From the IMG/VR virus record IMGVR_UViG_3300011013_000001, positions 1-64,000 of that record: DNA of 64,000 nt. One strand, given 5' to 3'. This stretch comes from a virus. Numbering within the stretch: position 1 is the stretch's first letter; each line of letters begins with the position of its first letter. The position numbers and the translations under genes are program-made. Shown here one piece after another: positions 7,299 through 60,991 of this stretch. The notes beneath the pieces are model-generated. The model searched no databases. It saw only the letters and a program-made list of their open reading frames with translations, and was not told the DNA's origin.

Positions 7299-7630
7299 TA
7301 GTTATCCCCCATCCCTTTGTGTTCAGGACATTCACCCCATTCAGAAATATCCCCATGCGGGTCATTAGGTGGCAATTGTTCCACTTTGTATGGTTCGCTT
7401 TCGGGGGGACAGTGCATACAATACCACGACAATTCACCTTGATTGGCTCTGGAATCTTGGATACACTCAAGACAAGACCACTCTCGCGGTGCTCTCTCGC
7501 GCCCGCATTCGTTTATACAAGGCTCTCCGGTAGGTTGGTCTAATGGTTCTTCACTATGGGCTACATATTCTTCACCCGTATCTTTATCATGGGTTTTCAA
7601 CACGCGCCAAGCGGTATCTATTGGATTCAA
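7298..7630 (-). CDS. Zn-finger protein with N-terminal MNPIDTAWRVLK tag
   Basis: 110-aa ORF. Its TTG start overlaps the giant ORF's TGA stop (TTGA), 3 nt after GAGGTGAATAA. Three CxxC pairs. The N-terminus is nearly identical to that of 33780-34889. Confidence 0.7.
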   Translation of the reverse strand: MNPIDTAWRVLKTHDKDTGEEYVAHSEEPLDQPTGEPCINECGRERAPREWSCLECIQDSRANQGELSWYCMHCPPESEPYKVEQLPPNDPHGDISEWGECPEHKGMGDN

Positions 7631-39396: not shown

Positions 39397-42300
39397 TTAA
39401 TCCGCTCGTAATTCTAACACTGCTTCGTCATCGTTCACGCGAAGCGTTGCTTTCTCCCCTTCTTCGGTAGTAATCGCGCTTTTATTGCCGGTTTTCGGGG
39501 TTTTCTCTTTGGAGCGCTCATCCTCACCGGGTGAGAAATCAGGGAGCGTTTCAGGTTTTTCTAATTCAGTCGGCCCGCGCGGAGCGGCATCCTCTGTGCC
39601 TAACCCTATCGCTAATCCCTTCGGTCCGGTCCACGTCATTTTCTCTTTAGTAAGCATTTCTTCTAGAATAAGTAACGCTTTGAGTACCACAGGGTCTTTC
39701 AGTAGTTGATTTTCGTCAACTTTCTTCGGTTTCTTATCTTCAGGTCGTGGGTCGGGCTCCACTTCCGCCTTCTTCTTTTTCTCGTGCAGGTACGGGCGCG
39801 GGTCATAATCTGCTGCTACTTTCTCTTTCAGCATTAAAACTGCAACAGGCGACCAGCACGGCTTGAGAGTATTGGATATTCTGACCGAATGTGCAATATC
39901 TTGTGAAGACTGTCCTGCCGCCAATCTCCACGCCTCGCCTTGTTCAGTAGTTTTGTACAATACTTCGTCATCACTCCATGGTAGGCTGACGGTGATTGTA
40001 TCACCTTCCACCACCACGCGGTGCGGTATGGCAGGTACACCTGATTTTGTCAGCAATTCTACTGATTCCGAACTGTCGGTCGCCTGTGATTCTGCCGGAC
40101 CTATGATTTTAGCCCCGTTCAGTGAATATACTTCCGCTCCGTCACGCTCGTTTTTAGTAGCGCTACCGACAGTAACTACTACAAAATCACCAACTTCCCA
40201 ATTATGGTCGCTCTTACTACCATCGGTGGCCGTTCCTACTTCCATATATTTGCGCTTATTGTGAGTATCTGAGCGGTTACCGAGTGAATCAGCAGCCTCA
40301 TCAGTAATCGGACCTATGCCAATTCGGTAATCACCACCCTTAATCCCAAGAACTATGACGCTAACGCGCTTCTCATTATCCATTAATACCCATTTTGGAT
40401 GCCGTGTCTCGCCTTCCATATAGGTAGACTCAGCGTCTCGTAGCATGATTCTATCACCCTCAAGTTCCCCAATCGCTGCTTCTAATCCTTCATCGTCAGT
40501 AGCACGAGTGTTCACAGGCTGAGGCGTATGCACGTGCTCAGTAGACTCAAATGTACCGCGCAGTACTCTCATTCTGTGTTTCAGCGGTTCCTCTACCACG
40601 TCCTCGGTAGCGATTTTAAGCAAATCCATTACCCAAAGAGCGGTCCCGTCCCAAACGCAATCTATCACGAAATCCTTTTCGTTCACCTTCTTGAGGTCGT
40701 CTAGCGCTTCCGCGCTCACGGCGACATCGTTCTTGGTCTTACTTTTCCCGTCCTTTTTCTCTATAAGAACTCGCTCTCCTTCGGGCCATACGCTGACAAC
40801 CCAACTACCACTGAACCCGCGCAGGTTCTCCAAATCTCCTAAATCAAAGATTCTGTGAGCGGCTTTAATTGCGGGAGTTTCACCCTTCTCTCTATCATCA
40901 TCTTCCTTGTACAGAAGATTGAGATTGGTTAGCCATTGTAACGGTTCGCCCATTTGGAATAAGTCACTATCCCTTAACTTATCACGTTTTGCAGTATGTT
41001 TAGCGTGATGCGGTAACGCCCATGACTTAGCATGAGAGCCAGCGCTGTCAATATACCGGGTCATAGACTGTATAGCCGCCGGCCCGATAGTATGCATCGG
41101 TTCAATGTTCGGCTCTACGGTATCACGGATGAGAGACAGTGGTGGAGCGAGCGCATCTTGAGTGACAGCGTGACTCAAATCATTCAAATCTAAGAACTGA
41201 GGTTGGCCTGTAGCGTGGTCAAAGGTAATATCAAACGGAGCGCGTATTGCGTGACCATGATGCCGAGTCATGGCAGGTGATGTATAGGCGGGCTGAACAG
41301 TTTGAGTACCGGCGTTTGAGCGTTGTAGAGGTAGTTGCTGTTGCGATACTATCTGCTTTTGACTCTCAGCAATAGGTGTCAAAAGTTTCCTAAAAATCTT
41401 ATTTTTGTCTTTTAGAATACCCTTTTTTCTAGTTTGCCTCATAGCGCGTTGCGCCCCACCGCCTATACCCCCTTGTCCTGTTTTCAGTCTCTTAGGAGTT
41501 TCACCGAATCTAAACCCTGTCTTATGCAAGGTGTTATTGAAATCGCGCCATACGCTGTTCAGTGCTGCTGTTTCATCAGCAGCGTTATGCTTGTATACTC
41601 GCGATACTCCATTTATACGAGGTTCTTTTACTATAGTCTGCCCTTCTTTAAGTTCAGGTTGCCTGATAGGGTGTCTATCAAACAGAGAATCAAATATGTT
41701 ATTAGGATTATCACGAATCTCTTTTGCTATATCTTGGTGATTCATGCTATCGGTCTCCTTTGCTACATATTTCATCCAATTTTCAGCACTACGAGACTTT
41801 TTAGCACCAACCTTTGCTCCTCTCACCCCATGTTCTTCTGCCGCAAGATTAGGGTTAGATTTCTGCGCTTTCAGTCGCCCGACAGCGTGATGTAGGACTC
41901 CGCGCGCAATCTCGCGAGGGTCAGGTGGTTTCTCTACACCCTCTGGTGTAGGGACCGGTATAGACCCGGGACTAAACACAGGTGAACTATCGTTGAGGAA
42001 CTCGTGAAATAAACTCATCATGCTTTTGTTACCCTTTGACACGTAATCTGCGATTCGGTCGTGTAAATCTTGGTCATGATTAGCGCGCGGTTGACCCATG
42101 ACAGGTAACGGTTCAACGCTCATAATGCCATCTTTCAGTCCGAACTTGGCGTTCTGTTCAGGAGTCTGATGATTGAGAATGTAACGTTCTGCGATTTCAC
42201 ACAACTTCATGTAAGCGACATTGGCCCTGTTCCAATTCTCCATACCGTCTTCGTCAATCTCCGGTTTGAATACATCGGGGTTACGTTTTTCTACAAACTC

Positions 42301-45279
42301 TTTGAGTGGTGGTAGAAGTTGAGCGATAGCACCGTGAGTATTATTCAGATGCTTGGCGTCTTCTACCATCCTACGATTATGTTCATTGCTCTTTTCTAGA
42401 ACCGATAACGGATAATACTCTTTATCTAAATCGTCTACTATTTCCTGTTGCCTCTCCATAGCAGATTCTATACCCTGCCGCTTGTCTTTCAAATCAGGAT
42501 TTTTACCCAAAGCATCATACCGTTCCTGTAACGTTTCAAGATAATACCGAGCAAGGTCGGCAGGATTTTCGTATGACGCGAATACCTTTTGCCCGTCATC
42601 AAGATTTATAGAATGAAAAAGACTCGGGTCTAAATTAGCAGTATCTGCTGGCTCTTTACTACCTGTTACACCGTGTACTTTGACTTGCCCTCTCGGGTTC
42701 GTTTCGTCTCCCCAAAGTTGACCTTGAGTGAAATTACCGAATCTCTCGCTCGCACGAGTATTCAAGAACTGACCTACTTCGTCTCTGCTAGTATCGGTCA
42801 ATCTACCTTCATCACCTTGGATATAGAACGCTCTCGGGTCAAACGTAGGGTAATCAGGATTCCATGGTTCATGGCCCTCAACCTCCCCATCGTACAAGTT
42901 CTGTAACTGAGCGAGATTCGCCTGTTTCCCAAACGGGTCGTTCAGGGAATATACGTTCAGGTTACCCATATAATCTTGAGTGGGCGAAGCGGGTGTTTGA
43001 GTCGGCACTTTCCGGTCTAATGGCGCGTCACCTCTAAGCCCTGCTTCTGTAAGCATAATAGCCCGTTGTCGGTCATTCTGTACTCCCATTTTGTCAGCAC
43101 CTACACGAGGAGCGTGACCGACAGCGCCAAAATCATCTTTCGCTATTTTATTGGCAAGAGACGATATAGGTATTCGGTAAGCGTTAGGTAATTCGTCGTC
43201 TTCATCAAGCCCGCGAGCGAACTGCCCGAATAATGCACCGCGCGTCATTTGGTTAGGGAAACGCGACCGATAAGTGTTCCCGCTCAGGCTACCCCGAGCG
43301 TATCGTTGTTTCGCTCTATCATCAGACTGTTGAGCGAGAAAACCGGGAGTATTGGTATCAAGATTAGCGGTAGGCCATACTGATTGAGCGTGACTCATAC
43401 CCGCTTCCGGTTCCATTATCCCCCACGGTCCGGGCGACTCTTCTCTCAACTCGCGCTCAAAGCGCGGTATTTCACCTTCTTCACTGATAAAATCGTCAAA
43501 CATACCGCTAAAATCTTGAAATCGCTCTTCTTGAGTTTTATCCTCAGTATCAATATCAGGCATTGAGATATGGTAAGAAGAAGAATGAGGCTGGGTAACG
43601 ATACCGGGGAACATTTCATCCAACCAATACTTAACCGAATCGTCATGGTGGCCCATACCACCTCCGCCCAAATCAAACATGTGGGTAAAAGTGTCAGTAC
43701 CATGAGTGAGCGGACTTAGATAATCGCGCATCGCTTGGTTTCCTTTCACTTCGTTCTCGTACTGCCCAACCACTCCTTCTGAGAACATTTTGTGACGAAC
43801 GCTATTATCAAGCCACCCATTGTCCACATAATTATTGATATGACCGGGCGACAAATACTTCTGCTGGCTATGCGAATCTTTCTCTTTGTCCCCTTCGTTG
43901 ATATAATCTACTCTATTACCTTCTTCGTCGAAATGTGGTATCAATAACGACCCAATATCCATACCTTCGTGGGCGGAGCGGCGCAAAATCTCTTCATACG
44001 CAGAGTGAGTCCCTGCCTCTTCCGCTCCGTGATGCGAGAACTCACCTGTCCCGCTATGCACTTGAAGATTAGTCAAGGCGTCTAGAATTGCTTGGCCTGA
44101 ATCAGCGCTATCAATATCCTGAACTACTTTACCACTATGCTCGGGAGCGTTCACGATATTACCATGAGAAGTCGGACCCGCTCTCGCCTTGTTGACTAAG
44201 CGAGACAGGCGAACGGCAATCTGCCTGTTTAAGAACGGAACCATATCGCGCGCTTCCGTACCAAAATACTCTTTCGCTTCAGAAGGGCGTCCGTCCGCTA
44301 TCCATTTCATAGTATTACGGCGCATTGAAGGTGACATCATTTCAGTCGCCCCGAGCCAACCCATGACCCCGAGTTGTTTCTCCGGGTCACGCTTTAATCC
44401 CTTATCCCGTACTAAATCTAATAATTCTTGGTTGGACTGAGGAAAATTACCATCCTCATCTAGAAACTGTCTAAAATCGTACCCTTCCCACTCAAGAGTT
44501 TTCGCGGCATGTACCATCGCTTCCGGGTCGTCCATCGGTTTTCCAAACTCTTTCTCGTAACTATTAGCGAGACGTTCTGATTCGCGTTGATGTAGCGCAC
44601 CAAGTCCGATATTACCGGTATGACGCCCGAACACTGTGTCTCTATGGTGAGGATGATTAGAATGTTTATTTTCATGAGAGTCAAGCCCTTCGTCAAACTC
44701 TTGCGCCCCGCCGTCACGGTACAGGTGTCTGAGGATTCCCTGCATTTGACTTGAAGGTAGAACAGCGTGTCGTTGAGCGAACAGACCAAGTCCTTCCACC
44801 GGGTGTTTATCCGGCCTGACATTATCAGAAGTATGTTCAACCGCCTGAGTCTCAGGTCGCCCTGACGACATTAAATCAAGAACACGATTGATGTCACTCG
44901 TGCTCCCTACCTCTAGCACTTTTTCATACCCCTTGCGTCCTACATGAGGTTTGAGTGATGCTGATGGAATTGGTGGTGCCCAGCCTTGTCTGCGAACAGT
45001 ACTCGGCTCGTCACCGGGTTGATGCTGATACCCACTTTCTTCTGTCGGGTACGCTCTATCTCTCCCACCTGCTTCTTTGATTATGGCTACTGCGCGGTCA
45101 AGAAGCACTAAATCGGATTTAGTTACAGGTGTACCTCGCCTATCACCATCAAGTGCTGCGAGTAGTAATTCAGAAGCGTCGTCCTCATTACAGTCATGAT
45201 ACAAGGATTTGACAAACTCAAAACGAGAGCGTTTCCAAAATGCTCTTGCATCTTCCTTTATGCCCTCACCCCCGTTCAT
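39397..45279 (-). CDS. 1960-aa head-module giant protein with ligase-like nucleotidyltransferase domain near the C-terminus
   Basis: Uninterrupted ORF between the portal-proximal genes and the protease gene. Its position is that of minor head (MuF/gp7-like) or ejection proteins. Ligase-like motifs lie at ~40130-40830. Confidence 0.85.
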   Translation of the reverse strand: MNGGEGIKEDARAFWKRSRFEFVKSLYHDCNEDDASELLLAALDGDRRGTPVTKSDLVLLDRAVAIIKEAGGRDRAYPTEESGYQHQPGDEPSTVRRQGWAPPIPSASLKPHVGRKGYEKVLEVGSTSDINRVLDLMSSGRPETQAVEHTSDNVRPDKHPVEGLGLFAQRHAVLPSSQMQGILRHLYRDGGAQEFDEGLDSHENKHSNHPHHRDTVFGRHTGNIGLGALHQRESERLANSYEKEFGKPMDDPEAMVHAAKTLEWEGYDFRQFLDEDGNFPQSNQELLDLVRDKGLKRDPEKQLGVMGWLGATEMMSPSMRRNTMKWIADGRPSEAKEYFGTEARDMVPFLNRQIAVRLSRLVNKARAGPTSHGNIVNAPEHSGKVVQDIDSADSGQAILDALTNLQVHSGTGEFSHHGAEEAGTHSAYEEILRRSAHEGMDIGSLLIPHFDEEGNRVDYINEGDKEKDSHSQQKYLSPGHINNYVDNGWLDNSVRHKMFSEGVVGQYENEVKGNQAMRDYLSPLTHGTDTFTHMFDLGGGGMGHHDDSVKYWLDEMFPGIVTQPHSSSYHISMPDIDTEDKTQEERFQDFSGMFDDFISEEGEIPRFERELREESPGPWGIMEPEAGMSHAQSVWPTANLDTNTPGFLAQQSDDRAKQRYARGSLSGNTYRSRFPNQMTRGALFGQFARGLDEDDELPNAYRIPISSLANKIAKDDFGAVGHAPRVGADKMGVQNDRQRAIMLTEAGLRGDAPLDRKVPTQTPASPTQDYMGNLNVYSLNDPFGKQANLAQLQNLYDGEVEGHEPWNPDYPTFDPRAFYIQGDEGRLTDTSRDEVGQFLNTRASERFGNFTQGQLWGDETNPRGQVKVHGVTGSKEPADTANLDPSLFHSINLDDGQKVFASYENPADLARYYLETLQERYDALGKNPDLKDKRQGIESAMERQQEIVDDLDKEYYPLSVLEKSNEHNRRMVEDAKHLNNTHGAIAQLLPPLKEFVEKRNPDVFKPEIDEDGMENWNRANVAYMKLCEIAERYILNHQTPEQNAKFGLKDGIMSVEPLPVMGQPRANHDQDLHDRIADYVSKGNKSMMSLFHEFLNDSSPVFSPGSIPVPTPEGVEKPPDPREIARGVLHHAVGRLKAQKSNPNLAAEEHGVRGAKVGAKKSRSAENWMKYVAKETDSMNHQDIAKEIRDNPNNIFDSLFDRHPIRQPELKEGQTIVKEPRINGVSRVYKHNAADETAALNSVWRDFNNTLHKTGFRFGETPKRLKTGQGGIGGGAQRAMRQTRKKGILKDKNKIFRKLLTPIAESQKQIVSQQQLPLQRSNAGTQTVQPAYTSPAMTRHHGHAIRAPFDITFDHATGQPQFLDLNDLSHAVTQDALAPPLSLIRDTVEPNIEPMHTIGPAAIQSMTRYIDSAGSHAKSWALPHHAKHTAKRDKLRDSDLFQMGEPLQWLTNLNLLYKEDDDREKGETPAIKAAHRIFDLGDLENLRGFSGSWVVSVWPEGERVLIEKKDGKSKTKNDVAVSAEALDDLKKVNEKDFVIDCVWDGTALWVMDLLKIATEDVVEEPLKHRMRVLRGTFESTEHVHTPQPVNTRATDDEGLEAAIGELEGDRIMLRDAESTYMEGETRHPKWVLMDNEKRVSVIVLGIKGGDYRIGIGPITDEAADSLGNRSDTHNKRKYMEVGTATDGSKSDHNWEVGDFVVVTVGSATKNERDGAEVYSLNGAKIIGPAESQATDSSESVELLTKSGVPAIPHRVVVEGDTITVSLPWSDDEVLYKTTEQGEAWRLAAGQSSQDIAHSVRISNTLKPCWSPVAVLMLKEKVAADYDPRPYLHEKKKKAEVEPDPRPEDKKPKKVDENQLLKDPVVLKALLILEEMLTKEKMTWTGPKGLAIGLGTEDAAPRGPTELEKPETLPDFSPGEDERSKEKTPKTGNKSAITTEEGEKATLRVNDDEAVLELRAD

Positions 45280-46890: not shown

Positions 46891-48756
46891 CTATCGCTTG
46901 AACCCGCTCTCTTTCTGCTTACCATTCACCCCTGCGTGTGCTTCGGCCACCGCGTCTAAAGCGCGCTCAACTGCCGACTTTTCACTACCCCGTTGTTTGG
47001 TTTTACCACCAGTGGGGTGACCTGTAAGTCCTTGCTTCTCTTCAACAGGAGCGGGTCCTCTATCTCGTAGTCCTTGACCTTCGCCAAGTCCGGCCATAGG
47101 TTGACCCATTCTAATAGGCATTCCGCCCGGTGGCATTCCGCCACCCATAGGTGCCCTACCCGGTGGCATTCCGCCCGGTGGCATTCCGCCCGGTGGCCGA
47201 GCGCCCATAGGCATTCCGCCCGGTGGCATTCCACCCATAGGCATCGGCGGTGGCATTCCGCCACCCATCATTGGGGGAGCGCCACCCGGAGTAGGGGCAC
47301 CCGGTGGAGCCGCTCCCGCCTGTTCTTCAGGCTTCTTGTATATGAACCGTATATCCCGCGCCGCATCTTCTTTGAGTATAGGCTGGAACCCGAGTTGCAT
47401 CATCCTCTGAGCGACATTGACTTCCATTTCATCACGACGTAGTCGTGTCACATCGTCCTCTTCCTCATTCGGGTATAACGTAACTTTCCAATCAGTCACA
47501 CCCATTTCATTCATTATACGTGGGAACAAGTCACGCGTGTATATCTTCTGACCGAACTCTACTGCGCGATTAGTGACAAGAATCTGCATACCTTCGTTGT
47601 TCAAACCACCTCCTTTACCCGTATCCATCATGAAGATATTAGATACACCGTAGAAGGCTGCGATTCGTGTTCTAATTTCATCGCGGACTTGGGCATACTG
47701 CATCTCATCTAGAGAATCCATAAACCGCACGAACTCAACTTTACCGCGACCTGTCGCAGACTCAACACCAACTTTAGGAATATAGTGAGGGTCACGCTCC
47801 ATTTTTTCTTCGGCACCTTTCCAAAACGATGCGGTAGATTGGATATTATCAGTAGTAATAGCAAGAATACCGCGCGGGATTCGGCGTTTTGAGTAAGCGA
47901 GATACATGTAGTTATCCATAGCGGTAAGGGTCATCGCCTGACGCCACATTGTAGCAACGGGTGAGCGTCCGTAGAGTTTGGACGGATTGTATTTAGAGAT
48001 ATGAATAACCTCGCCTTCAATATAGTATTGGGTCTTACCTGCGCCCGCGCTGTTAACGAAATGAACATCTTGGAGAGGTAGATTGCATTTCTCGCAAAAC
48101 TCGTATTCTTCAGTATGAGGGTAGGTTTTGTCACGGCATCCCGCTCTCAAACAGATGAGCCAGCGCCCGCCACGCGAACCTCTCTTGTCAGCGACAAGTC
48201 TCATGAAGGTAGGGTCGGAGCGCGCTAAACTTTTCACCCGATAAAACTCAACGTCACCTGATTTTTCGTCAATAAAATACTCTTTCTCAAGCACGAGGAA
48301 GGCATCATCTACAATATCCAAATCCCATTCAACCTCTCTCATAACGTCAATGAAAGATTGGTCTTGCTCGTTACGCTGTTTGAATAACCACTTTGGGTAC
48401 AGAAGTTGGTCAACGTCAGGCTCTTGAGTTTCACTACCACATAACTCACATTCAAGCACGTCATGTTGATATTCTTCTTCGCATTCTGTACATTTTCGGT
48501 GAAACTCTTTCTCCCAATAATATCCGCGCCGAAAAATCTCCTGAGCGAGCGTATTGATTGTAGTACGGAGGATAATAGATTCTTGCACAGTAGCGTACAG
48601 AGCGGGAATAGTAACACCCTGAACGAGCACCGGTTCTTGGATTCCGCTTTTCCATAGCGGCATCATAGGCTGAGGAGTACTGCTTCGCCTGAACGGTTTT
48701 CCAAGAGCAGAGAGGAACCGCCCGATTCGTGATTTCTCCTCAGCACCTTCAGGCAT
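46891..48756 (-). CDS. portal protein with inserted zinc ribbons and C-terminal GGMP-repeat tail
   Basis: 621-aa ORF one small gene and one LAGLIDADG gene downstream of the large terminase. Size and core are consistent with a portal. It contains CTEC-x11-CELC and C-x4-C...CEKC insertions. Confidence 0.75.
   Translation of the reverse strand: MPEGAEEKSRIGRFLSALGKPFRRSSTPQPMMPLWKSGIQEPVLVQGVTIPALYATVQESIILRTTINTLAQEIFRRGYYWEKEFHRKCTECEEEYQHDVLECELCGSETQEPDVDQLLYPKWLFKQRNEQDQSFIDVMREVEWDLDIVDDAFLVLEKEYFIDEKSGDVEFYRVKSLARSDPTFMRLVADKRGSRGGRWLICLRAGCRDKTYPHTEEYEFCEKCNLPLQDVHFVNSAGAGKTQYYIEGEVIHISKYNPSKLYGRSPVATMWRQAMTLTAMDNYMYLAYSKRRIPRGILAITTDNIQSTASFWKGAEEKMERDPHYIPKVGVESATGRGKVEFVRFMDSLDEMQYAQVRDEIRTRIAAFYGVSNIFMMDTGKGGGLNNEGMQILVTNRAVEFGQKIYTRDLFPRIMNEMGVTDWKVTLYPNEEEDDVTRLRRDEMEVNVAQRMMQLGFQPILKEDAARDIRFIYKKPEEQAGAAPPGAPTPGGAPPMMGGGMPPPMPMGGMPPGGMPMGARPPGGMPPGGMPPGRAPMGGGMPPGGMPIRMGQPMAGLGEGQGLRDRGPAPVEEKQGLTGHPTGGKTKQRGSEKSAVERALDAVAEAHAGVNGKQKESGFKR
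47110..47320 (-). repeat. coding tandem repeat, ~15-nt unit GGCATTCCGCCCGGT (encodes PGGMP)
   Basis: Read directly. It encodes GGMPPPMPMGGMPPGGMPMGARPPGGMPPGGMPPGRAPMGGGMPPGGMP. Confidence 0.85.
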
Positions 48757-48931: not shown

Positions 48932-50424
48932 TCAAGCACCCCCAAAAGTCGCTCGGCTTCAACGCCAAGAGATATGACTTCAGGGTCTCGCACCAACCAT
49001 TTTTCCACCGTCTCCACGTCTACGCCCCATTCTGCGAGTAGGTCGTCACTCTTTGTGTCTTTCCAATTTTCCCATTTCACGACACGCTGTAATTCAGTCT
49101 TTCTCGCTTTAGCGATTGACTCACGACCAAGTTCCACAAGTTCAAGCACTGCGTCTGCCTGTCGCTTTTTGAGTTCAAGATGAGGGCGTATTCCGGTCAA
49201 TAACTTCCGCAAATCGTCTTTGGAATAAAACTGAAGACGATGTTGTGACCTACGACTATTCTTGTGAACCTTCAAATCAAGTTGTAATACACCGCATCCT
49301 AACGCTTTGTACAAGTTTTCACAGTGGGTTTTACCGCGCGCGCCTGTTGCTATAATCCCAGCACGAGGTTCTCCGCGTTTTGTGATAGTGATATACCCGT
49401 CAGCATCAAGGAAACCGGCAGCATAGGCCCAAACGTCTTTAACGATAATAACTCCTTTACTGTCTTCCACTCCCCACTTATCTCTTGTGACTTTACCGAT
49501 ACCGTATTCATCACCATAAGTTTTGAGTAGCGCTCCAATCTTGGCTGTAGTAATTCCAAAATTGTCACCCTTCTCTACAATATCCTCAGTGATAGACCGA
49601 GTGCTCATCACTCCCTTATCTGCCAAACTGTTAGCGGCATTAGTTAACCACACAACTTCGTGTTTGTTCAGGGTGTCAATTTGGTGCAAGGTATTACGCC
49701 ATTGTTTTTTAGCATCCTTTTTGAGTTGAGTCGCTTTGACCCATTCCTGTTGCTCAGTTTCACCCCAAACCCCTTCATGGTCACTAAGTCGCTTAATGAC
49801 TCCATCAGCCTTCTCCCACGACACACAAGCGCGCCGTAGTCCGACCTCTCTCCCTTGGGCGTGTTTCCTTAGAGCAGTGAGATTGCGGTCTGATAACCCG
49901 AGTTCACGAATCGCCCCGATGTGGCCTTCCGCCCACGGTATTGCTTTGAGAGTATCTTCTACTTCCATTCGCTTCATCAGCCGAATCGCATCAATAGCGT
50001 CGTCAATATCAGTTTTGAACTCTTTATGGACACGGCGCGCTCGTCTCAAATCCTTAACGATTTTCTCTGCTCCTTTACCAAAATAGGTATCAAACCATCC
50101 TGCGCCTGAATCAGGGAACGATAATTGGATTTGGTCTTGCTGAGCGGCTTGCATCCCAAGCGCTCCCGCAGTTTGCATAAGTTTCTGTCTACGCTTCTCT
50201 TCCTCTTCAGGGTTAGCCAGCCCCTCGTTAGTTTTCGGGGCGAGAGTGCCTTCTCCTTCGGAAGTAGCGCTCGGCCCATCGCCTATCGCTCCGGGCGTCA
50301 CTCTTTCTCCCGCTTTAGCGAAGAGCGGGTGCTGAGCAAGATGTTTCACCACCAAAGCGGTGTCCTCATCTAATCCAGCCACCGGTGCGTCATACTCGTC
50401 CCCAATCAATGTACTACCCCACAT
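48928..50424 (-). CDS. LAGLIDADG-domain protein (single-motif homing-endonuclease-like C-terminal domain)
   Basis: 498-aa ORF. AAGFLDADGYITI lies at 49393-49422, followed by ~120 aa typical of one LAGLIDADG half-domain. TAATG overlap with the terminase gene. Confidence 0.7.
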   Translation of the reverse strand: MWGSTLIGDEYDAPVAGLDEDTALVVKHLAQHPLFAKAGERVTPGAIGDGPSATSEGEGTLAPKTNEGLANPEEEEKRRQKLMQTAGALGMQAAQQDQIQLSFPDSGAGWFDTYFGKGAEKIVKDLRRARRVHKEFKTDIDDAIDAIRLMKRMEVEDTLKAIPWAEGHIGAIRELGLSDRNLTALRKHAQGREVGLRRACVSWEKADGVIKRLSDHEGVWGETEQQEWVKATQLKKDAKKQWRNTLHQIDTLNKHEVVWLTNAANSLADKGVMSTRSITEDIVEKGDNFGITTAKIGALLKTYGDEYGIGKVTRDKWGVEDSKGVIIVKDVWAYAAGFLDADGYITITKRGEPRAGIIATGARGKTHCENLYKALGCGVLQLDLKVHKNSRRSQHRLQFYSKDDLRKLLTGIRPHLELKKRQADAVLELVELGRESIAKARKTELQRVVKWENWKDTKSDDLLAEWGVDVETVEKWLVRDPEVISLGVEAERLLGVLE

Positions 50425-51818
50425 TAGTCAATCAGCCCCGCCATAATCTCGTCCAAATCTATAACTCGTTCTCTGAACTCAGTCGTGGCCCAATTAGCGA
50501 GCGCGAGCGCTATTACGAAATCGTCGTGTCGGCCTATGCTCTCTAACCTTCCGCCTCTACTCATCCCAAACATTATCAGTTCGTTTTCCAAGATTCGCGT
50601 CATTTCTCGGCTCTGTTCTTCAGCGTACGGCATTCTTACCTGTTCGCGCTCAAATCGTAGAACCAAGCCCATTAGTAAGGACTGCCTCTTAGTTTTGGAC
50701 GAAATGAAAGTCTTGATTGGTAGGTCGGTATTCGCCCGAAGTTCAGTAGCGAAAACTCGCTGAAAATGGTTAGCCTCAAGTTCTATCACTTCCGGCCGGA
50801 ACTTAGCATTCAATCGCTGAATCTCCATAATCTGAGTCCTGAAATCCATAGCCTTGCGCCGAACATAATGAACAATCTCAAGGTTAGGCGAATCAGGGGG
50901 TTTGCGTAGAACTACCATCACTGTATAATCAGCGCTCCGGTCAGACGAAATCGCCGGGTCCCAGCCGATGAAATACTGCGCTTCATCATCCTCTTCCGGT
51001 CTACGCGGGATTATACACAGGCTGTTATCTCTGCAAGGTTGAAGAATAGTAGTAGGGAACAGGCTTGAAGAATCATCAATCGGTTCACACAGATATTCCC
51101 GAGCGAACGATACTGCTGTCATATCCTTTCGTCTTTCGTCTAGCGCATCTAAATCCCATCGTTCAGGCCATAACGGTTCGCCTTTCTCGTTGATTGCCGG
51201 CCAAGTTTCCACGATGTACCCTTCTTTGCTTTCAAGTTCGGTGTAAAGGTCAGTCGGAGTAAACGGTGTTCCTACTATCATCAATTTCCCGCTGTGATGC
51301 AGCGTGGGAATCATGACTTCGTAGTACCAAGTCGCTACCTTTTTCAGTTCGCTTTCAGTAGTACCCCATAGAATATCGTCACAAAGAATGATGTTAGGGT
51401 GAGCACCACGAACCGCTCCGCCGACCGACTTAGCGGTAATGCGCGACCCGTTAGTGAACCCAAAATAAGTTTTAGCCCACGCGTCTTTTGAGCGCAGGTG
51501 TCGCAGAATCGGTGTCATCATTATCATTTCGTCTATGAATCGCATGTGGCGGATAGTTTGGTCCAGCGAGTGAGAGAAAATAATTGCATCAGTCCGTTCT
51601 TCAAAGGTCACCTTCCATAGTAGGTAACACAAAAACAGTACAGACTTACCATGGTCACGCGACGCTTTCACACAATACCGGTCCTCTTTGTTGAGTTGTT
51701 CAACCCAATGAGCGTGATGGCGAGCGAGTTGCCACCCGAGAATATCTTGAAAAAAGAACGTAAAATCCTTTTTTGACATCTCCCAATCTATCTCAAGGAT
51801 TGGGTCGTCAAACTGCAC
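50424..51818 (-). CDS. terL: terminase large subunit
   Basis: 464 aa. Walker A-like CVKASRDHGKS and Walker B-like IILCDDILW. The RNaseH-like nuclease half reads IGWDPAISSDRSADYTVMVVL ... DDFVIALALANW. Confidence 0.92.
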   Translation of the reverse strand: MQFDDPILEIDWEMSKKDFTFFFQDILGWQLARHHAHWVEQLNKEDRYCVKASRDHGKSVLFLCYLLWKVTFEERTDAIIFSHSLDQTIRHMRFIDEMIMMTPILRHLRSKDAWAKTYFGFTNGSRITAKSVGGAVRGAHPNIILCDDILWGTTESELKKVATWYYEVMIPTLHHSGKLMIVGTPFTPTDLYTELESKEGYIVETWPAINEKGEPLWPERWDLDALDERRKDMTAVSFAREYLCEPIDDSSSLFPTTILQPCRDNSLCIIPRRPEEDDEAQYFIGWDPAISSDRSADYTVMVVLRKPPDSPNLEIVHYVRRKAMDFRTQIMEIQRLNAKFRPEVIELEANHFQRVFATELRANTDLPIKTFISSKTKRQSLLMGLVLRFEREQVRMPYAEEQSREMTRILENELIMFGMSRGGRLESIGRHDDFVIALALANWATTEFRERVIDLDEIMAGLID

Positions 51819-56135: not shown

Positions 56136-56557
56136 TCGTCATCACCTTCCACGATTCGCTCGTACGTCCCGACAAGCCGACGATGGAGATTCATATAGAA
56201 CTCACGGACGTAGTGAGGAGAACTAAACGGCATAGCAAGTTCGTCGCACAATGTTTTGAACTGACTGAGAGACTGTCTTAATTCACGCCTGTACCTGAAC
56301 GCCTCTTGCGGCTCATCAACTGTTTGGATTCTATCAAATAGTTCTATAATACCGTCTAATAGCAATCGGTGTTCATGATACCGAGCGTATACAGGTGGCC
56401 CATACTCCCCAATCGCCTCGTACCATCGGTCTATCACATCTCGTATCAGACCAAGAAATAACCCAAGTTCCACATCGTTCATAGCCCCACGGTCACGCAG
56501 AATGCCGCTATGTCCAATATCATCACAGGTGAGCGTGGAGATACTGATTGCTTTCAA
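56126..56557 (-). CDS. hypothetical helical protein
   Basis: 143-aa ORF with coupled overlaps. Confidence 0.6.
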   Translation of the reverse strand: MKAISISTLTCDDIGHSGILRDRGAMNDVELGLFLGLIRDVIDRWYEAIGEYGPPVYARYHEHRLLLDGIIELFDRIQTVDEPQEAFRYRRELRQSLSQFKTLCDELAMPFSSPHYVREFYMNLHRRLVGTYERIVEGDDECQ

Positions 56558-57246
56558 ACTTCGTCACCTTCCACTAATTTTGAACGAATCTTACGCCAAA
56601 CATCAGGCGATTCCTTAGACAGTTCAACTTTAATGAGGTTCACAGTCTGTGCGTTAATGCCAGCCTCCGCAGCCTGTCCTCCCATAGCACGCTCTTGGAT
56701 TTTGAGAATATCCTTGACGGTCTCTCGTACTTCTTTGTGCATCCGTTGAAGATTACCGTAAAACTGAGGGTCGTTCCTATCAGGGTTCTCAAACAGGTAA
56801 CCAAGTTCGCCGTTCAATTTCTCAACGTTTTCACGTAGCGCTTCCATCTCACTCCCCGCTTTTAGAGCGATAACCGGAGCGGCAGACGCTTGAACTAACG
56901 GTTTCAGATGATGCTTCAAATGGTTGTACACGGTAGTTTCAGAACAACCACACATTTCTGCAATTTCAGCAGAAGACACATCACCGTTGTAATAATCCTC
57001 TTCAACTTGGTAACGATTGAAATAGGTACAGACTATACATTCTGAATTGGATGCAAGATGATATTCCCCCATATGGTTACGAAAATGCCGGTCAGACGTG
57101 TTTTCACGCCATTCCATCCTCTTGTCTAATTCCTTGGGAGTCACGATTCCGTTCCTTAATTCCTCTTCCAAATCGTCACGCGTTTCGCACTGACACAACT
57201 TGCATGAGGCTCGCGTAATCCGCTCCGCCATGTATAGCGGACACAC
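56554..57246 (-). CDS. DNA-binding protein with duplicated CxxC + helix-turn-helix modules (regulator or small-terminase-like)
   Basis: 230-aa ORF. The two modules are CKLCQ..DLEEELRNG..TPKELDKRM....RHFRNH and CIVCT....EEDYYNGDVSSAEIAEMCGCSETTVYNHLKHH. The start could be the GTG at 57246 or the ATG at 57231. Confidence 0.6.
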   Translation of the reverse strand: MCPLYMAERITRASCKLCQCETRDDLEEELRNGIVTPKELDKRMEWRENTSDRHFRNHMGEYHLASNSECIVCTYFNRYQVEEDYYNGDVSSAEIAEMCGCSETTVYNHLKHHLKPLVQASAAPVIALKAGSEMEALRENVEKLNGELGYLFENPDRNDPQFYGNLQRMHKEVRETVKDILKIQERAMGGQAAEAGINAQTVNLIKVELSKESPDVWRKIRSKLVEGDEV

Positions 57247-57269: not shown

Positions 57270-57689
57270 TTGTCCGGTCTCATAATGCGGAGATTGGGGC
57301 GCGCCCCGCAAGTTGCGGGAATACCAGTAAATCGCGATACGGCTGAGAGTTTGATGAAAGCCGCTCGTGATTTGGTACTAAACAATAGAGTTGATACTGA
57401 AACGTCGAAAAAGAGGTTACAGGAGTGTATGTCCTGCGAACATTTTAACGGAAGCAGGTGCTCGCAATGCGGTTGTTTCATGAAAACAAAAGTTACACTT
57501 CGGTCGGCAGACTGCCCGTTAAACCGGTGGTCAAGTGCTGAGTCTGCGATAAACCACACCGGTCAGACTGAAAGCAGTAAACAACCCGCCCATCGTCCAC
57601 GCAAGTTGGCTAGAAGTCATATTGTAACCCTCAAAGACGATAAGCAAAAACGCCCCAAGAGCCATAGCGATAACCTGAACCATGATTAG
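57270..57689 (+). CDS. plus-strand Cys-rich small protein (CxxC-x9-CxxCGC-x15-CP..RW)
   Basis: TTG start 7 nt after AAAGAGG. The pattern CMSCEHFNGSRCSQCGCFMKTKVTLRSADCPLNRW resembles a recurrent small phage Zn-protein, as far as I recall. The opposite-strand ORF 57254-57559 looks non-coding. Confidence 0.5.
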   Translation: MSGLIMRRLGRAPQVAGIPVNRDTAESLMKAARDLVLNNRVDTETSKKRLQECMSCEHFNGSRCSQCGCFMKTKVTLRSADCPLNRWSSAESAINHTGQTESSKQPAHRPRKLARSHIVTLKDDKQKRPKSHSDNLNHD

Positions 57690-57788
57690 GTCTATCACGA
57701 CCCTGCTACCAAGATTCGTCATATCGCTCATGGCTATACTCATATTACTGATACTCATTGGGTTCATTCCGTTAGGTTTTACGTCCAT
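57531..57788 (-). CDS. small membrane protein (2 predicted TM helices)
   Basis: 85-aa ORF. GAGGTGAaatt precedes the ATG. Confidence 0.6.
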   Translation of the reverse strand: MDVKPNGMNPMSISNMSIAMSDMTNLGSRVVIDLIMVQVIAMALGAFLLIVFEGYNMTSSQLAWTMGGLFTAFSLTGVVYRRLST

Positions 57789-57792
57789 AATT

Positions 57793-58416
57793 TCACCTCA
57801 TTCCTGTAGCCGCGCCGAACATTCCACGAGCGAGTCCGCCAACAGCACCACCCGCTTGTTCCATGAATCCGTCATTCTGCATAGCAGCAGTCAATGCTCC
57901 ACCCATCATAGACTGTTGCGTCATCTGAAGTATTTGCTGTTGCTGCATCCCACTGTTCTGTACAGCCATGTTAGCGGCTTGCTGTAGTGTCACAAGTTCA
58001 CTCGTTACATTTTCGGAACTCATAGTTTGGAACTGAGCGGGGAGAGAAGTAATATCAATCTTAAGCCCCTTATCCCCATCATCCACAAACTTAGCGTTTC
58101 TGAAAAACTCTACAAGGTTGAGCGCTACAACACTACTGACTACACCTACAACTTGCTTGAACCCGTCAGTCATTAACCACGCGTCAATCGGAGTACTCGT
58201 CTGTTGAAGCATAGCAAAAATCTCTAATTCAGAAGGCGGAGCGACCGGCTGTTGCGGTACGCCTAAACCCGCCATAAACGGATTCTGTTGTTGGGGAGGC
58301 ATACCCCAAGCGGGGGTAGCGCCCATAGACTGTGCTCCGTTAGCGAGTCCAAGATTAAGAGTGCCTGTTGGTTGAGGAGCAGATTGAGTATTATTGTTAC
58401 TAAACGGCCAAACCAT
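57793..58416 (-). CDS. Gln/Met/Gly/Ala-rich low-complexity protein
   Basis: 207-aa ORF. Confidence 0.65.
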   Translation of the reverse strand: MVWPFSNNNTQSAPQPTGTLNLGLANGAQSMGATPAWGMPPQQQNPFMAGLGVPQQPVAPPSELEIFAMLQQTSTPIDAWLMTDGFKQVVGVVSSVVALNLVEFFRNAKFVDDGDKGLKIDITSLPAQFQTMSSENVTSELVTLQQAANMAVQNSGMQQQQILQMTQQSMMGGALTAAMQNDGFMEQAGGAVGGLARGMFGAATGMR

Positions 58417-59361
58417 CTATTCCACCTCGGGCAGATTCGCTTGTTTTTCTGCTAACAATTGCTGCAACCCCGCTCCTACGGGAGCGACCTCTCCTCCTTG
58501 AACCTGTTGCTGTAAGACAGGGAGACCGCTCTTACCTTCAGCGAACTGCCGCATATCAAACACGACCATAGTGACATCGTTGACCCCTGTTTCGCTATTC
58601 TGCATATGAATGATAGGGATTTTATCAGCCTTTATCATTTTGAAGAACGGTTCGTATTTCTGAAGAGTGGTGGGAGTATTATCTTTGGGTTTTACCGCTG
58701 TCATCGGTACGGCTACCATACTAACCCCCTTCTTCACTTTAGCCTTGAGAGTGCCACTATTCGCCTCAATTTCGTTCTCTTCTTCTCTTTCCCATTTAGT
58801 CAGAAGATGATAGAGATGTAGATGTTCAGGACAATAAGTAGCGCGCATCGTACGACCACCGGTCACTTTTTCACGAGCGAGGAATGCCTGATTCTCGCCC
58901 GACACGGGGTCAATGAAATACATATCCCAAAGAGTCCGGCCGGTATCCTCATCGCGAATCTCACTGAACACATTACCCATGGCCTTGAGCAGATAGTCAA
59001 CATCACAACCGTCAACGCAACATTGTGACGTGTTTTTGTTGTACCTGTATTTACCACCAATCAAACGGCGTGGCGAAAAAGCACTACGCTTTGTAGGAGT
59101 TAAGAGGCGATACGCCTGTTTAATGTCCTGACGACGCGCCTTGCGTGGGTTAGCGTGCCTTGAAGGATAGAAGTTAACGCGTGGGATTTCAATATGCGGT
59201 TGATTGTCTGCCGCCGCTTGCATCACCCCTTGGGCCTGCGCTAACCCTTGAAGTTCCGCGAGCGACACGTTCGGAGTGTTCGCCGCAAGCCTCACTAATT
59301 CAGTCTGTGTGTTCATCGCCAAAGGGGTCTGCTGCGCTCCCCACGCTAAAGGATTCATCAT
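58417..59361 (-). CDS. hypothetical protein
   Basis: 314-aa ORF. The N-terminus MMNPLAWG weakly resembles the tag. Confidence 0.7.
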   Translation of the reverse strand: MMNPLAWGAQQTPLAMNTQTELVRLAANTPNVSLAELQGLAQAQGVMQAAADNQPHIEIPRVNFYPSRHANPRKARRQDIKQAYRLLTPTKRSAFSPRRLIGGKYRYNKNTSQCCVDGCDVDYLLKAMGNVFSEIRDEDTGRTLWDMYFIDPVSGENQAFLAREKVTGGRTMRATYCPEHLHLYHLLTKWEREEENEIEANSGTLKAKVKKGVSMVAVPMTAVKPKDNTPTTLQKYEPFFKMIKADKIPIIHMQNSETGVNDVTMVVFDMRQFAEGKSGLPVLQQQVQGGEVAPVGAGLQQLLAEKQANLPEVE

Positions 59362-59381
59362 TTCTCGCTCGCCTCTCTATT

Positions 59382-60107
59382 TTACCACGTTAGCATCTCA
59401 ATTAAAGTGCTTTCCACGTTCCACCCGATGCGGGTAGCCATCATTGAGACTCTACAAGGTACACCCGCTTTCTGCAATTCTACCATACCGGGTCTCAATG
59501 AATCAAAGATTCTGTGTTCGCGCAATCGCTGCTGCTTCCAAAGTATGTTCGCCTGTTCGTCCCACCATTTGTCAGCCTTGTTAGCGACTACTACCACTAA
59601 GGTAGGCTTGTATCGTTTCCCTTTAATCCGAGTCGCTATCCGGCGGTAGTTCCACCGCTGATTGATGATAGCGTCAACAAGGAACTTAAACCCACCAATA
59701 CAGTCTACAGCCCCGCCGCCACCGTTCAGTGCTCGCTCATCAAGCATGAATACTACGATTTCGCATTGTCTGTCCACCATATCCTCAATCCAAAGGTTCC
59801 AAAACCGTTGCTGTCCACCAATATCGGCGCTATGAATGACACGCCTCTCCCCCTTCCACCGGATTCGTTTCCGGGTCGGGCGAGGGAGAGTATACCCTCC
59901 TTTCAATAACCGCTTCGGATGAGCGGTACGCATCTTCTCGGGTATCTCTTCCATTTCACCCGGTGTAGTCATGTAGCGGTCAAAAGTGGTTTTACCCACC
60001 AACGTAGGTCCATAAATGCCGATTCTGCGTGGTTTCCAATAATTCCATAACTGCTGACCCCAAACCGCCGCACCAATTAGCGCAGACCCACCTAGACTCA
60101 TCGTCAA
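59382..60107 (-). CDS. small GTPase, Arf/G-alpha-like (P-loop GPTLVGKTT, DIGGQ, NKAD)
   Basis: 241 aa. G1 is GPTLVGKTT (aa 33-41). G3/switch II is ADIGGQQRFWNLW. G4 is VVANKAD. The G5-like motif is SMMATRIGWNV. The N-terminus is hydrophobic/amphipathic (LIGAAVWGQQLWNYW). Confidence 0.8.
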   Translation of the reverse strand: MTMSLGGSALIGAAVWGQQLWNYWKPRRIGIYGPTLVGKTTFDRYMTTPGEMEEIPEKMRTAHPKRLLKGGYTLPRPTRKRIRWKGERRVIHSADIGGQQRFWNLWIEDMVDRQCEIVVFMLDERALNGGGGAVDCIGGFKFLVDAIINQRWNYRRIATRIKGKRYKPTLVVVVANKADKWWDEQANILWKQQRLREHRIFDSLRPGMVELQKAGVPCRVSMMATRIGWNVESTLIEMLTW

Positions 60108-60113
60108 CGGGCA

Positions 60114-60356
60114 TCACAACCGCGAAAGTTGTTCGCCAGCCCAATCCCCAATACGGGTAACTGATGCTTCCCAAATGCTTGAACCGTAATAAAACTCAAA
60201 CGCTGAAATAACAAACGTAGTGATGAAAACCGCGATTAAGACCTTTAACCAACCGAAAAACCGTTGATATTCACGGTCTACAAGGTTTTGAGTATGCCAA
60301 GCCCTCATCGTCTTCTCAACGGCGTCGTCGCTCGGGGTCTTGAACAGCCAACCCAT
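60114..60356 (-). CDS. small single-pass membrane protein
   Basis: 80-aa ORF with the hydrophobic helix WLKVLIAVFITTFVISAFEFYY. Confidence 0.6.
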   Translation of the reverse strand: MGWLFKTPSDDAVEKTMRAWHTQNLVDREYQRFFGWLKVLIAVFITTFVISAFEFYYGSSIWEASVTRIGDWAGEQLSRL

Positions 60357-60362
60357 TCTCCA

Positions 60363-60929
60363 TCACTTCTTACCTTTCGTTTTAGATTCTGCTACCTTAC
60401 CCGCACCGAGGTCTAACGGTTGGTCGGACTTGGCTTCGTGAGCCGGAGCGGACGGTGCGAAATCCTCGCGCGGCGGTTCAGCCACTTTAGCCATCACCGC
60501 TTCAGGATTATGCTCAAGCATCTTCAGTTGAGCCTCAAGTTGTAATTCCTGTAACCGTAATTCTTGTTCCAATTGCCTACCGGAGAACATTTGCTGCATC
60601 TGCATAACTCGCCTATCCCTCTCCTTCTGTTGCCGAGCAAACGTAGCCCTGCTGTCCATGGAATCCTGCATTAACATTTTGTAAATGAAATAAGAGATAC
60701 CCTGTAAAGTGAACGCTCCCATTGTATAAGTCAGTGCGTTAGTGTACACAGAATCTTCCATTCGGAGCCATAATCGCGCATCAAACACGGCTATCGCCGC
60801 TCCTACCAACATACTCACAAAGGCAATTAAACCCATTACCTTCAATTCGTCTTCATTACCTCTATTCGGCCCTGCGCCCAGCGTCTGCATCATCTCGCCT
60901 CTCAAATAGCGACTACCGCTTTGGTTCAT
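60363..60929 (-). CDS. membrane protein (2 TM) with Gln/Glu-rich coiled-coil tail
   Basis: 188-aa ORF with no SD. An A/T box, TAATGATATT, lies at 60953-60962, about -33 to -24 from the ATG. Confidence 0.65.
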   Translation of the reverse strand: MNQSGSRYLRGEMMQTLGAGPNRGNEDELKVMGLIAFVSMLVGAAIAVFDARLWLRMEDSVYTNALTYTMGAFTLQGISYFIYKMLMQDSMDSRATFARQQKERDRRVMQMQQMFSGRQLEQELRLQELQLEAQLKMLEHNPEAVMAKVAEPPREDFAPSAPAHEAKSDQPLDLGAGKVAESKTKGKK

Positions 60930-60970
60930 AAGAGCGTCGTTCCGATTAACCCAATATCATTAGAACTCTT

Positions 60971-60986
60971 ATCCCCTTTAGGGGAT
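60971..60986 (-). terminator. perfect hairpin ATCCCC-TAAA-GGGGAT, 5 nt after the stop of the 941-aa gene
   Basis: Read directly. No U-tract follows. Together with the A/T box it may mark a transcription-unit boundary. Confidence 0.3.
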
Positions 60987-60991
60987 ACCGC

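Follow-up and report, generated by a model that had tools for sequence, protein, structure and literature searches.

A conserved gene module around a divergent Ras-like small GTPase in magrovirus-type tailed viruses of Poseidoniales

What is the role of a small GTPase that a tailed virus encodes among small membrane proteins? This question was raised by a stretch of 64,000 nucleotides (nt), hereafter the window, which corresponds to positions 1-64,000 of the IMG/VR record IMGVR_UViG_3300011013_000001 and belongs to a metagenomic source contig of 109 kb. A first-pass annotation had placed six open reading frames (ORFs) between 57531 and 60929 and described one of them as an Arf/G-alpha-like GTPase with small membrane-protein neighbors. 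All six ORFs were found there, on the minus strand. They encode a 2-transmembrane coiled-coil protein, a 1-transmembrane protein, the GTPase, a 314-amino-acid (aa) Cys/His protein, a Q/M-rich protein, and an 85-aa membrane protein. Our main reading, to which we give a probability of about one in two, is that these six genes form a core gene set built around a membrane-binding GTPase switch that acts late in infection.

The GTPase gene (59382-60107, minus strand) encodes a divergent small GTPase of the Ras superfamily with a predicted N-terminal amphipathic helix. Its start is probably the ATG at 60101, which yields 239 aa and agrees with the gene caller. The homologues at an expect value (E) ≤ 1e-3 numbered 458; every one came from marine metagenomes, none had a precomputed Pfam domain, and two IMG clusters among them bore the automatic label "GTPase SAR1 family protein." The conservation of the motifs was counted over 121 aligned homologues. 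In the G1 P-loop GxxxxGK[ST], G38, K39, T40, and T41 were present in 121/121 and G33 in 120/121. The G3 motif DxxG (D95, G98) and the G4 motif NKxD (N176, K177, D179) were invariant, and the G5-like MAT (A224/T225) was kept in 120 of the 121 sequences. There are three candidates for the switch I threonine (G2), namely T78, which is T or S in 119/121 and lies at the start of predicted strand 2, and the invariant T48 and T61; T78 is favored from the model. A loss of the G motifs in homologues, which would have spoken against a GTPase, was not seen, since these motifs were retained even in relatives of 23-38% identity. The predicted GTPase keeps every residue needed for the binding of GTP and Mg2+. 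The position of the catalytic Gln (residue 99, 59811-59813, minus strand), right after DxGG, was occupied by E in 59, Q in 46, D in 13, and H in 3 of the sequences. These residues are all polar, and catalysis may be unconventional or supplied in trans.

The fold was then predicted with AlphaFold2 (AF2) from 62 sequences. The model reached a predicted local distance difference test score (pLDDT) of 78 and a predicted template modeling score (pTM) of 0.77, and it showed the strand and helix order of small GTPases. The Foldseek search of this model against the PDB returned 1021 matches at E ≤ 1e-3. The top 50 were all small GTPases (Rho/Rac/Rab), with probability 1.0 and E from 7e-9 to 6e-7. The template modeling score (TM-score) was 0.53-0.65 when normalized to the target and merely 0.41-0.49 when normalized to the query, owing to the inserts of the viral protein. 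One insert of about 20-25 residues lies between helix 1 and strand 2 and contains the invariant motifs TPGEM and RTxH, and further extra segments are located before strand 5 and between G4 and G5. These results, together with the invariant motifs, indicated that the protein is a bona fide small GTPase, as had been proposed, and the small-GTPase matches of the model excluded a generic P-loop NTPase.

When the single GTPase sequence was searched against PDB, Pfam, PHROGs, NCBIfam, and PADLOC, no match was significant. In a profile search of 1.84 billion proteins, 87 cluster representatives (at 50% identity) were found at E ≤ 1e-3, many of which were fragments. With merely 87 representatives in a set of this size, the putative family is isolated. 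No cellular relatives were evident among the 87, and this is not certain since the matches carried no source annotation. The representatives that were looked at further resembled members of the same GTPase family, and none of them was identified as ArvA.

The comparison with Arf and G-alpha proteins held in part. Switch II reads D-[ILV]-G-G-x-x-R-F-W-N-L-W, with DxGG (G97) in 108/121 members and W106, at +11 from the Asp, in 121/121. DxGG followed by a Trp at +11 is the pattern of Arf, Sar1, and G-alpha, while DTAGQ is that of Ras, Rab, and Rho. The family profile (without borderline members) was compared with the PDB sequences, and the Arf-related GTPase GerdArfR1 (8OUN) ranked first at E 2.5e-6, followed by Arl8A/B at 3.5e-4 to 1e-3 and then Rab33B at 1.2e-3. 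The addition of three borderline sequences to the profile brought 8OUN to E 4.4e-10. In switch II, the segment DLGGQLHFRNLW of GerdArfR1 is aligned with DIGGQQRFWNLW of the window GTPase. GerdArfR1, whose structures are 8OUN and 8OUM, is an Asgard protein (bioRxiv 10.1101/2024.02.28.582541). The third Arf trait is the N-terminal helix, which was predicted at residues 3-24 of the AF2 model. Its maximum hydrophobic moment had a family median of 0.31, compared to 0.27 for ARF1. The median of the best 19-residue Kyte-Doolittle value was 1.09, which is below the transmembrane range, and most members have K/R-E in the middle of the helix. The N-terminus is thus predicted to be an amphipathic helix that is too polar to span a membrane. 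Accordingly, of the earlier comparison of this N-terminus with those of Arf and SR-beta, the amphipathic helix was retained and the transmembrane anchor of SR-beta was not.

Other tests failed to separate the protein as an Arf. The Pfam Arf model (PF00025) scored 12.9 bits on the window GTPase, under the gathering score of 22.3. It stayed under threshold in all 62 scanned members, with weak matches in 15/62 (best E 0.0063), and was about equal to Roc. No Arf structure appeared in the Foldseek top 50 against the PDB. The hhalign comparisons with single reference sequences (HRAS, ARF1, SAR1A, RHOA, RAC1, RAN, RAB5A, and MglA) did not separate Ras, Rab, Sar, and Arf. In addition, the switch II Gln was replaced by E, D, or H in 75/121 members, contrary to the Arf signature DxGGQ. 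On the side of Arf, the nearest outlier in the 1.84 billion proteins that has a Pfam domain, the borderline sequence P0205 from among the weakest matches, exceeds the Arf gathering score. A G-alpha identity was rejected, as the all-helical domain is absent, with just the 20-25 extra residues at its place, and the window protein has no Pfam G-alpha match. An SR-beta identity was likewise rejected, as the N-terminus is below transmembrane hydropathy and Pfam SRPRB was weak in 2/62, with P0205 alone passing. We therefore read the GTPase as the representative of a family that is new and isolated within the Ras-like superfamily and has several Arf-type features, while membership in the Arf family could not be demonstrated.

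The gene always found directly downstream of the GTPase encodes the 314-aa protein (58417-59361, minus strand), for which 606 homologues were collected. C114, C177, H180, and H182 are invariant in this protein, and C119 and H185 are near-invariant. Because of these residues, the Cys/His set suggests a zinc site. The protein also has a basic N-terminal stretch. The core of its AF2 model (residues 60-200) was predicted confidently, with a pLDDT of about 90. The fold searches with this model yielded neither a PDB match at E < 1 nor any nucleic-acid-binding fold, the profile search against PDB sequences gave nothing, and there was no Pfam match. One unnamed viral model of BFVD was matched (E 4e-5, TM-scores 0.25/0.36), which gives no function.

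The conservation of the neighborhood was evaluated in 80 IMG/VR loci found through the GTPase, in which identities were taken as medians relative to the window proteins. The order of the 2-transmembrane coiled-coil, 1-transmembrane, GTPase, 314-aa, Q/M-rich, and 85-aa genes, followed by a helix-turn-helix (HTH) protein gene and the large terminase gene (TerL), was kept in 80/80 loci. Each gene was detected in 73-80 of the 80, and the median gaps inside the six-gene block were 1-9 nt. The median identity of the GTPase was 65%, close to the 68% of TerL, and that of the 314-aa protein was 60%. The 2-transmembrane coiled-coil, 1-transmembrane, 85-aa, and Q/M-rich proteins reached 50, 48, 47, and 38%, respectively. 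Moreover, in the loci that were retrieved independently through TerL and had enough upstream DNA, the GTPase and the 314-aa protein were present in 16/16. The metagenome search that had been suggested for this neighborhood thus recovered its gene order in the 80 loci.

The arrangement also persisted in more distant viruses. It was completely legible from the ORFs of the contig L093, at 38% GTPase identity, and on a thermosome-encoding contig of 101 kb all module genes but the last were legible at 30%. These results bore out the proposal of a conserved module that includes small membrane proteins. In the contig L089, the GTPase follows a run of small transmembrane ORFs, one of which is weakly similar to the 2-transmembrane coiled-coil protein. 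The adjacency of the GTPase and the 314-aa protein persisted in the far relatives L088, L092, L093, and L094. In L088, a more distant virus-like contig, this pair alone was still adjacent (BLASTP E 1.5e-5; hhalign 97%, E 8e-11). Several other distant family members sit on contigs too short for their context to be read. The pair of L088 stands opposite a block with Tad2-like and Acb5 anti-defense genes and an integrase (this region of L088 covers 3349-4837 and 5899-9354), and the pair is thus also present in a different, possibly temperate, mobile element.

The whole window is a single co-oriented run of tailed-virus genes. These include TerL (50424-51818), a portal (46891-48756), a prohead protease (37981-39369), an SU10-type major capsid protein (36839-37984), and a tail tube (28222-30177). 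The co-oriented block opens with genes for proteins of 411 and 941 aa, about 4 kb upstream of the module. Past the tail genes, the source contig carries on the opposite strand a thermosome-type chaperonin (NCBIfam thermosome, E 1e-113), together with an ERCC4 nuclease, a PD-(D/E)XK nuclease, and a family B DNA polymerase (PolB). According to published descriptions, magroviruses, tailed viruses of Marine Group II (Poseidoniales) archaea, have genomes of about 100 kb in which the structural and replicative blocks face each other, and they encode PolB and an archaeal chaperonin; the thermosome marks their group A or clade 1 (PMC5434244, PMC5332604, PMC10768690). The 109-kb contig, its opposed blocks, thermosome, and PolB, and a Poseidoniales-linked relative fit this description, and the virus of the window is therefore a magrovirus-type tailed virus of Poseidoniales, as assigned by gene content against the published descriptions.

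The Poseidoniales-linked relative, which was found when species-representative genomes were scanned, is L093 (AG-422-I20_NODE_2, 106,262 bp), a syntenic and near genome-length contig in a Poseidoniales single-cell assembly. The same module is present on this contig, with 38% identity to the window in the GTPase and 53% in TerL, and the contig provides direct evidence, from a single cell, of which host this virus group infects. The labels Maricaulis, Promethearchaeati (Asgard), Parvibaculum, and Flavobacteriales of the metagenome-assembled genomes that contain L090, L091, L092, and L094 were rejected as host evidence. These contigs are short or mis-binned, and because their labels look like binning artifacts, the host was taken from the single-cell assembly alone. 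The four contigs are almost certainly binning errors that could mislead surveys of hosts or of "Asgard GTPases." In 50,697 phage records, a collection without the reference magrovirus ON649702, tblastn gave no homologue of the GTPase, and the best match of TerL was 26% identical, in Bacteroides phages. There is thus no cultured relative. Taken together with the synteny, the six-gene, operon-like module is core to the magrovirus-type tailed viruses of Poseidoniales.

The small membrane proteins that had been noted around the GTPase were confirmed by hydropathy, which found two, one, and two hydrophobic segments in the 188-, 80-, and 85-aa proteins. In the 188- and 85-aa proteins, one segment is strong and the other is weaker and conserved, while the 80-aa protein has one transmembrane segment. 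The first gene (60363-60890, minus strand; the ORF was listed to 60929, giving 188 aa) adds a coiled-coil tail rich in Q, E, and R to its two segments. It was found in 78/80 loci and has equivalents in L093 and L094. The second gene (60114-60356, minus strand) encodes the single-pass protein of 80 aa, which has the conserved N-terminus MGWLFKTPSDD and was present in 80/80 loci. The last gene of the module (57531-57788, minus strand; 73/80 loci) encodes the 85-aa protein, which ends in VYRRLS. Upstream of it, the Q/M-rich gene (57793-58416, minus strand; 74/80 loci) encodes 207 aa rich in Q, M, and G, with the N-terminus MVWPF, a central domain that is conserved, and a C-terminus rich in Gly. 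Neither Pfam nor the PDB gave a match for this protein, and an assignment as SepF/DUF2073-like, as ArvB is, was dropped for want of Pfam or PDB support. The 80-aa and Q/M-rich proteins have an aromatic N-terminal motif in common, MGWLF(KTP) or MGRIF(KTP) in the former and MVWPF, MGLFG, or MAWW in the latter. It is located at 60342-60356 and 58402-58416 (minus strand) in the window and at 3181-3195 and 5152-5166 in L093, where the two variants are exchanged between the proteins. We speculate that it is a common docking or membrane-targeting peptide.

The first-pass annotation had also suggested that the block is its own transcription unit, with a hairpin before it and a first gene that lacks a Shine-Dalgarno (SD) sequence. 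The missing SD was an artifact of the start codon, because the ATG at 60929 falls inside a conserved non-coding motif and in relatives directly precedes a stop codon. The likely start is the ATG at 60890, which has GAGAGGCGAG upstream and is the choice of the gene caller (175 aa); the relatives have AAGGAGG at the corresponding place. Most genes of the window have SD sequences of the GGTGA or GAGGTG type. The non-coding motif (60924-60951, minus strand) reads GGGTTAATCGG-N7-CTCTTATGAAC in the window and GGGTGAATCAA-N3-7-CTTATGTAG in the relatives, and in most of the 46 related loci compared it stands before the ortholog of this gene. Its degenerate form is GGGTKAATCRR-N3-7-CTTATGNA, and in many relatives it holds an ATG-TAG start-stop pair preceded by a GGTGA SD-like sequence. 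The motif may be a promoter, an operator, another regulatory element, or a minimal ORF. It occurs once in the window, and so it is not a general late-promoter signal there. The hairpin UAUCCCC-UAAA-GGGGAUA (60970-60987, minus strand) is real. It has a 7-bp stem a few bases past the stop codon of the 941-aa gene, and this is the main stem of the minimum free energy fold, in which the region folds weakly better than shuffled sequences (z -1.77). The relatives have different inverted repeats at this place, as read by eye.

At the other end, the module is bounded by a convergent gene on the plus strand (57270-57689), which had been missed before and fills an apparent gap of about 285 nt that is conserved in length. 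It encodes a small Zn-ribbon protein (CxxC...CxxCGC...CPxxKW) that matches Pfam DUF6171 at 30.3 bits, against a cut-off of 27. All its neighbors lie on the other strand. The conserved domain ends near 57530, and the open frame continues beyond it and overlaps the 85-aa gene in antisense. By tblastn the gene was matched in 79/80 loci, and each match lay between the 85-aa gene and the HTH gene. With the conserved element upstream and the convergent gene downstream, a separate transcription unit is supported. A sigma-70 and intrinsic-terminator scan, which is inapplicable to an archaeal host, placed promoter-like sites about 2 standard deviations above shuffled sequences and terminator-like sites at their level. 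The following packaging block begins, outside the module, with the CxxC and HTH protein (56554-57246, minus strand; 80/80 loci), which is small-terminase-like. It gave weak matches to HTH_20, Sigma70_r4_2, Terminase_5, and PHROG small terminase subunits, and is probably a small terminase or a late regulator. Its N-terminal CxxC pairs are conserved, and the relatives support a longer form that starts near 57231-57246 over the 196 aa to which the gene caller cuts it.

How might such a module work? In our main reading, the GTPase would use its N-terminal helix to attach to the host cytoplasmic membrane and leave it again in cycles, in the manner of Arf, Sar1, and the archaeal ArvA. The Zn protein would be a regulator or effector of the GTPase, the small membrane proteins would be its anchors or targets, and the switch would govern a membrane event late in infection. 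The module lies just upstream of the structural and packaging block and shares its orientation. In the late operon of lambda, the lysis genes stand ahead of the terminase genes, and the position of the module is similar. There are also archaeal precedents. ArvA, a small GTPase with a Zn-ribbon neighbor, drives membrane vesiculation, and the proposed GTPase-activating protein (GAP) of the ArvABC operon, ArvC, is a zinc protein as ArfGAPs are (PMC10927574). As for the event itself, we favor the timed disruption or remodeling of the host membrane for virion release, because archaeal tailed viruses have no known egress machinery (PMC10791045) and no holin or endolysin is recognizable. Taken alone, this is a tentative proposal. 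Its fuller form, in which the module is the egress machinery of one large group among the archaeal tailed viruses and the GTPase and its Zn partner time the opening or remodeling of the membrane by the small proteins, is somewhat more doubtful.

Several points weigh against a late membrane switch. The late timing is a guess from gene position, and the binding of the membrane through the N-terminal helix is a prediction. The variation at the catalytic Gln puts the mechanism of hydrolysis by the predicted GTPase in doubt. No lytic enzyme or recognized holin family was found in the module or its flanks with Pfam and PHROG. The 314-aa and Q/M-rich proteins match nothing known. Finally, the pair in L088 follows a helicase-like gene and a 463-aa gene and has no membrane-protein neighbors, so the core pair may not be intrinsically linked to a membrane.

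This last point leads to an unlikely alternative, in which the GTPase and the Zn protein are the true unit and act as a nucleic-acid or expression switch in late transcription, translation, or packaging, with the membrane neighbors being separate. The pair is the most conserved part of the module by median identity and the sole part present in every distant relative. The basic stretch and the Cys/His ligands of the Zn protein and the HTH gene with CxxC pairs next to the module would suit such a role, as would the gene context in L088. However, the conserved amphipathic helix of the GTPase is hard to accommodate, and the searches detected no nucleic-acid-binding fold in the Zn protein. Even where GTPase identity falls to 30%, five or six genes, including those of the transmembrane proteins, stay together with 1-9 nt between them, and L089 again has small transmembrane ORFs upstream, including the weak homologue of the 2-transmembrane coiled-coil protein.

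Another explanation keeps the membrane and moves the time. The module would act early or throughout infection, in superinfection exclusion, in the takeover of host transport or the envelope, or in the induction of vesicles as decoys or for spread, and not in egress. Small membrane proteins are typical of exclusion systems. The formation of archaeal vesicles is driven by ArvA-type GTPases (PMC10927574). The own upstream motif of the module and the convergent gene that separates it from the packaging genes mean that it could be regulated independently of the late genes. On the other hand, exclusion and accessory genes are usually variable, while this module is core (16/16 loci) with a GTPase nearly as conserved as TerL, and it is adjacent to and co-oriented with the structural block. 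There was also no match to known defense or exclusion families: PADLOC gave noise-level matches for the GTPase (E 0.027) and the 314-aa protein (E 0.016) and none for the other module proteins. The flanking HTH protein, outside the module, matched mad1 of PADLOC at 3.6e-4 over the HTH stretch. We consider an early role improbable as well.

One further alternative, a generic P-loop NTPase or a GTPase-like protein that has decayed to inactivity and resembles Arf by chance, is largely refuted and very improbable, for although no Pfam, NCBIfam, or PHROG model reached threshold, the catalytic Gln is not conserved, and RecA and ABC P-loop proteins occurred among the weak profile matches, these last span the P-loop only, the predicted fold is that of a small GTPase with probability 1.0, and the NKxD, DxxG, and G1 residues are kept across the family and its distant relatives.

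A late membrane switch remains our preferred reading, and its interest lies in the viruses concerned. Magroviruses are among the most abundant archaeal viruses of the surface ocean (PMC5434244), and the exit of archaeal tailed viruses from their hosts is an acknowledged open question (PMC10791045). A core module built around a membrane-directed small GTPase, with nearly terminase-level conservation, provides a concrete and testable candidate for a late membrane function. In our literature search, no paper linking a GTPase to magroviruses was found, and the main magrovirus papers mention none; both the small-GTPase family and the viral module seem to be undescribed. The GTPase adds a viral, euryarchaeon-associated branch to the small GTPases with Arf-like membrane-switch features; until now, discussion of such GTPases has concerned eukaryotes, Asgard archaea, and the archaeal ArvA family. 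The conserved zinc protein, which has no known fold, is a candidate for a new type of GTPase partner. If the proposal of virion release is true, lysis or release would here be controlled by a GTPase, in a system for which the holin-endolysin cassettes of bacteriophages offer no counterpart.

Elsewhere in the window, two giant ORFs of 1960 and 5545 aa stand out. The 5545-aa ORF (7627-24264, minus strand) lies downstream of the tail tube gene and has a weak Laminin_G_3 match on the source contig. Should it be a tape-measure or tail-fiber protein, its length would be extraordinary. The 1960-aa ORF (39397-45279, minus strand), which separates the portal region from the prohead protease, weakly matches an ATP-dependent DNA ligase domain at residues 1500-1630 (E 0.0015), and such a domain is unusual within a head-morphogenesis block. 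The Rfam and tRNA scans of the window were empty.

Among known systems, Rho, Rac, and Rab gave the best structural matches of the AF2 model of the viral GTPase, and Rab33B was among the profile matches. It differs from them in switch II, which has DxGG instead of DTAGQ, in a sequence identity of 10-19%, and in having the N-terminal helix in place of a C-terminal prenylation motif. With the Arf family (GerdArfR1, Arl8) it shares the predicted amphipathic helix right before strand 1, the GKTT P-loop, NKxD, and the switch II pattern D-[ILV]-G-G-x...F-x-N-L-W with Trp at +11, and this family gave the best PDB sequence matches of the family profile. In contrast to Arf proteins, it falls below the Pfam Arf threshold, Foldseek places Rho/Rac/Rab first, it has the TPGEM/RTxH insert and extra segments, and it mostly has E, D, or H for the switch II Gln. 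It also comes from a virus of a euryarchaeal (Thermoplasmatota) host, not from an Asgard archaeon or a eukaryote.

The module resembles ArvA-ArvB-ArvC of Haloferax volcanii and other archaea (PMC10927574) in that the operon of a small Ras-superfamily GTPase with an N-terminal amphipathic helix also encodes a zinc-binding protein, a probable one in the virus, as well as a further small protein, and ArvABC is linked to the deformation of archaeal membranes. It differs in its three integral membrane proteins, which are absent from ArvABC, and in that no module protein matches DUF2073 (ArvB) or DUF2072 (ArvC) of Pfam; the module was set apart from the operon of ArvA (HVO_3014) by these domains of the neighbors. 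The lysis cassettes of phages, such as S-R-Rz of lambda, are more distant in content, since the module has no endolysin, spanin, or holin-family match, a GTPase and a Zn protein are not part of any described cassette, and the host is an archaeon with an uncharacterized envelope. What the module has in common with these cassettes is its layout, with several small membrane proteins just upstream of the packaging genes in late orientation, and the 85-aa protein with two hydrophobic segments and a charged C-terminus.

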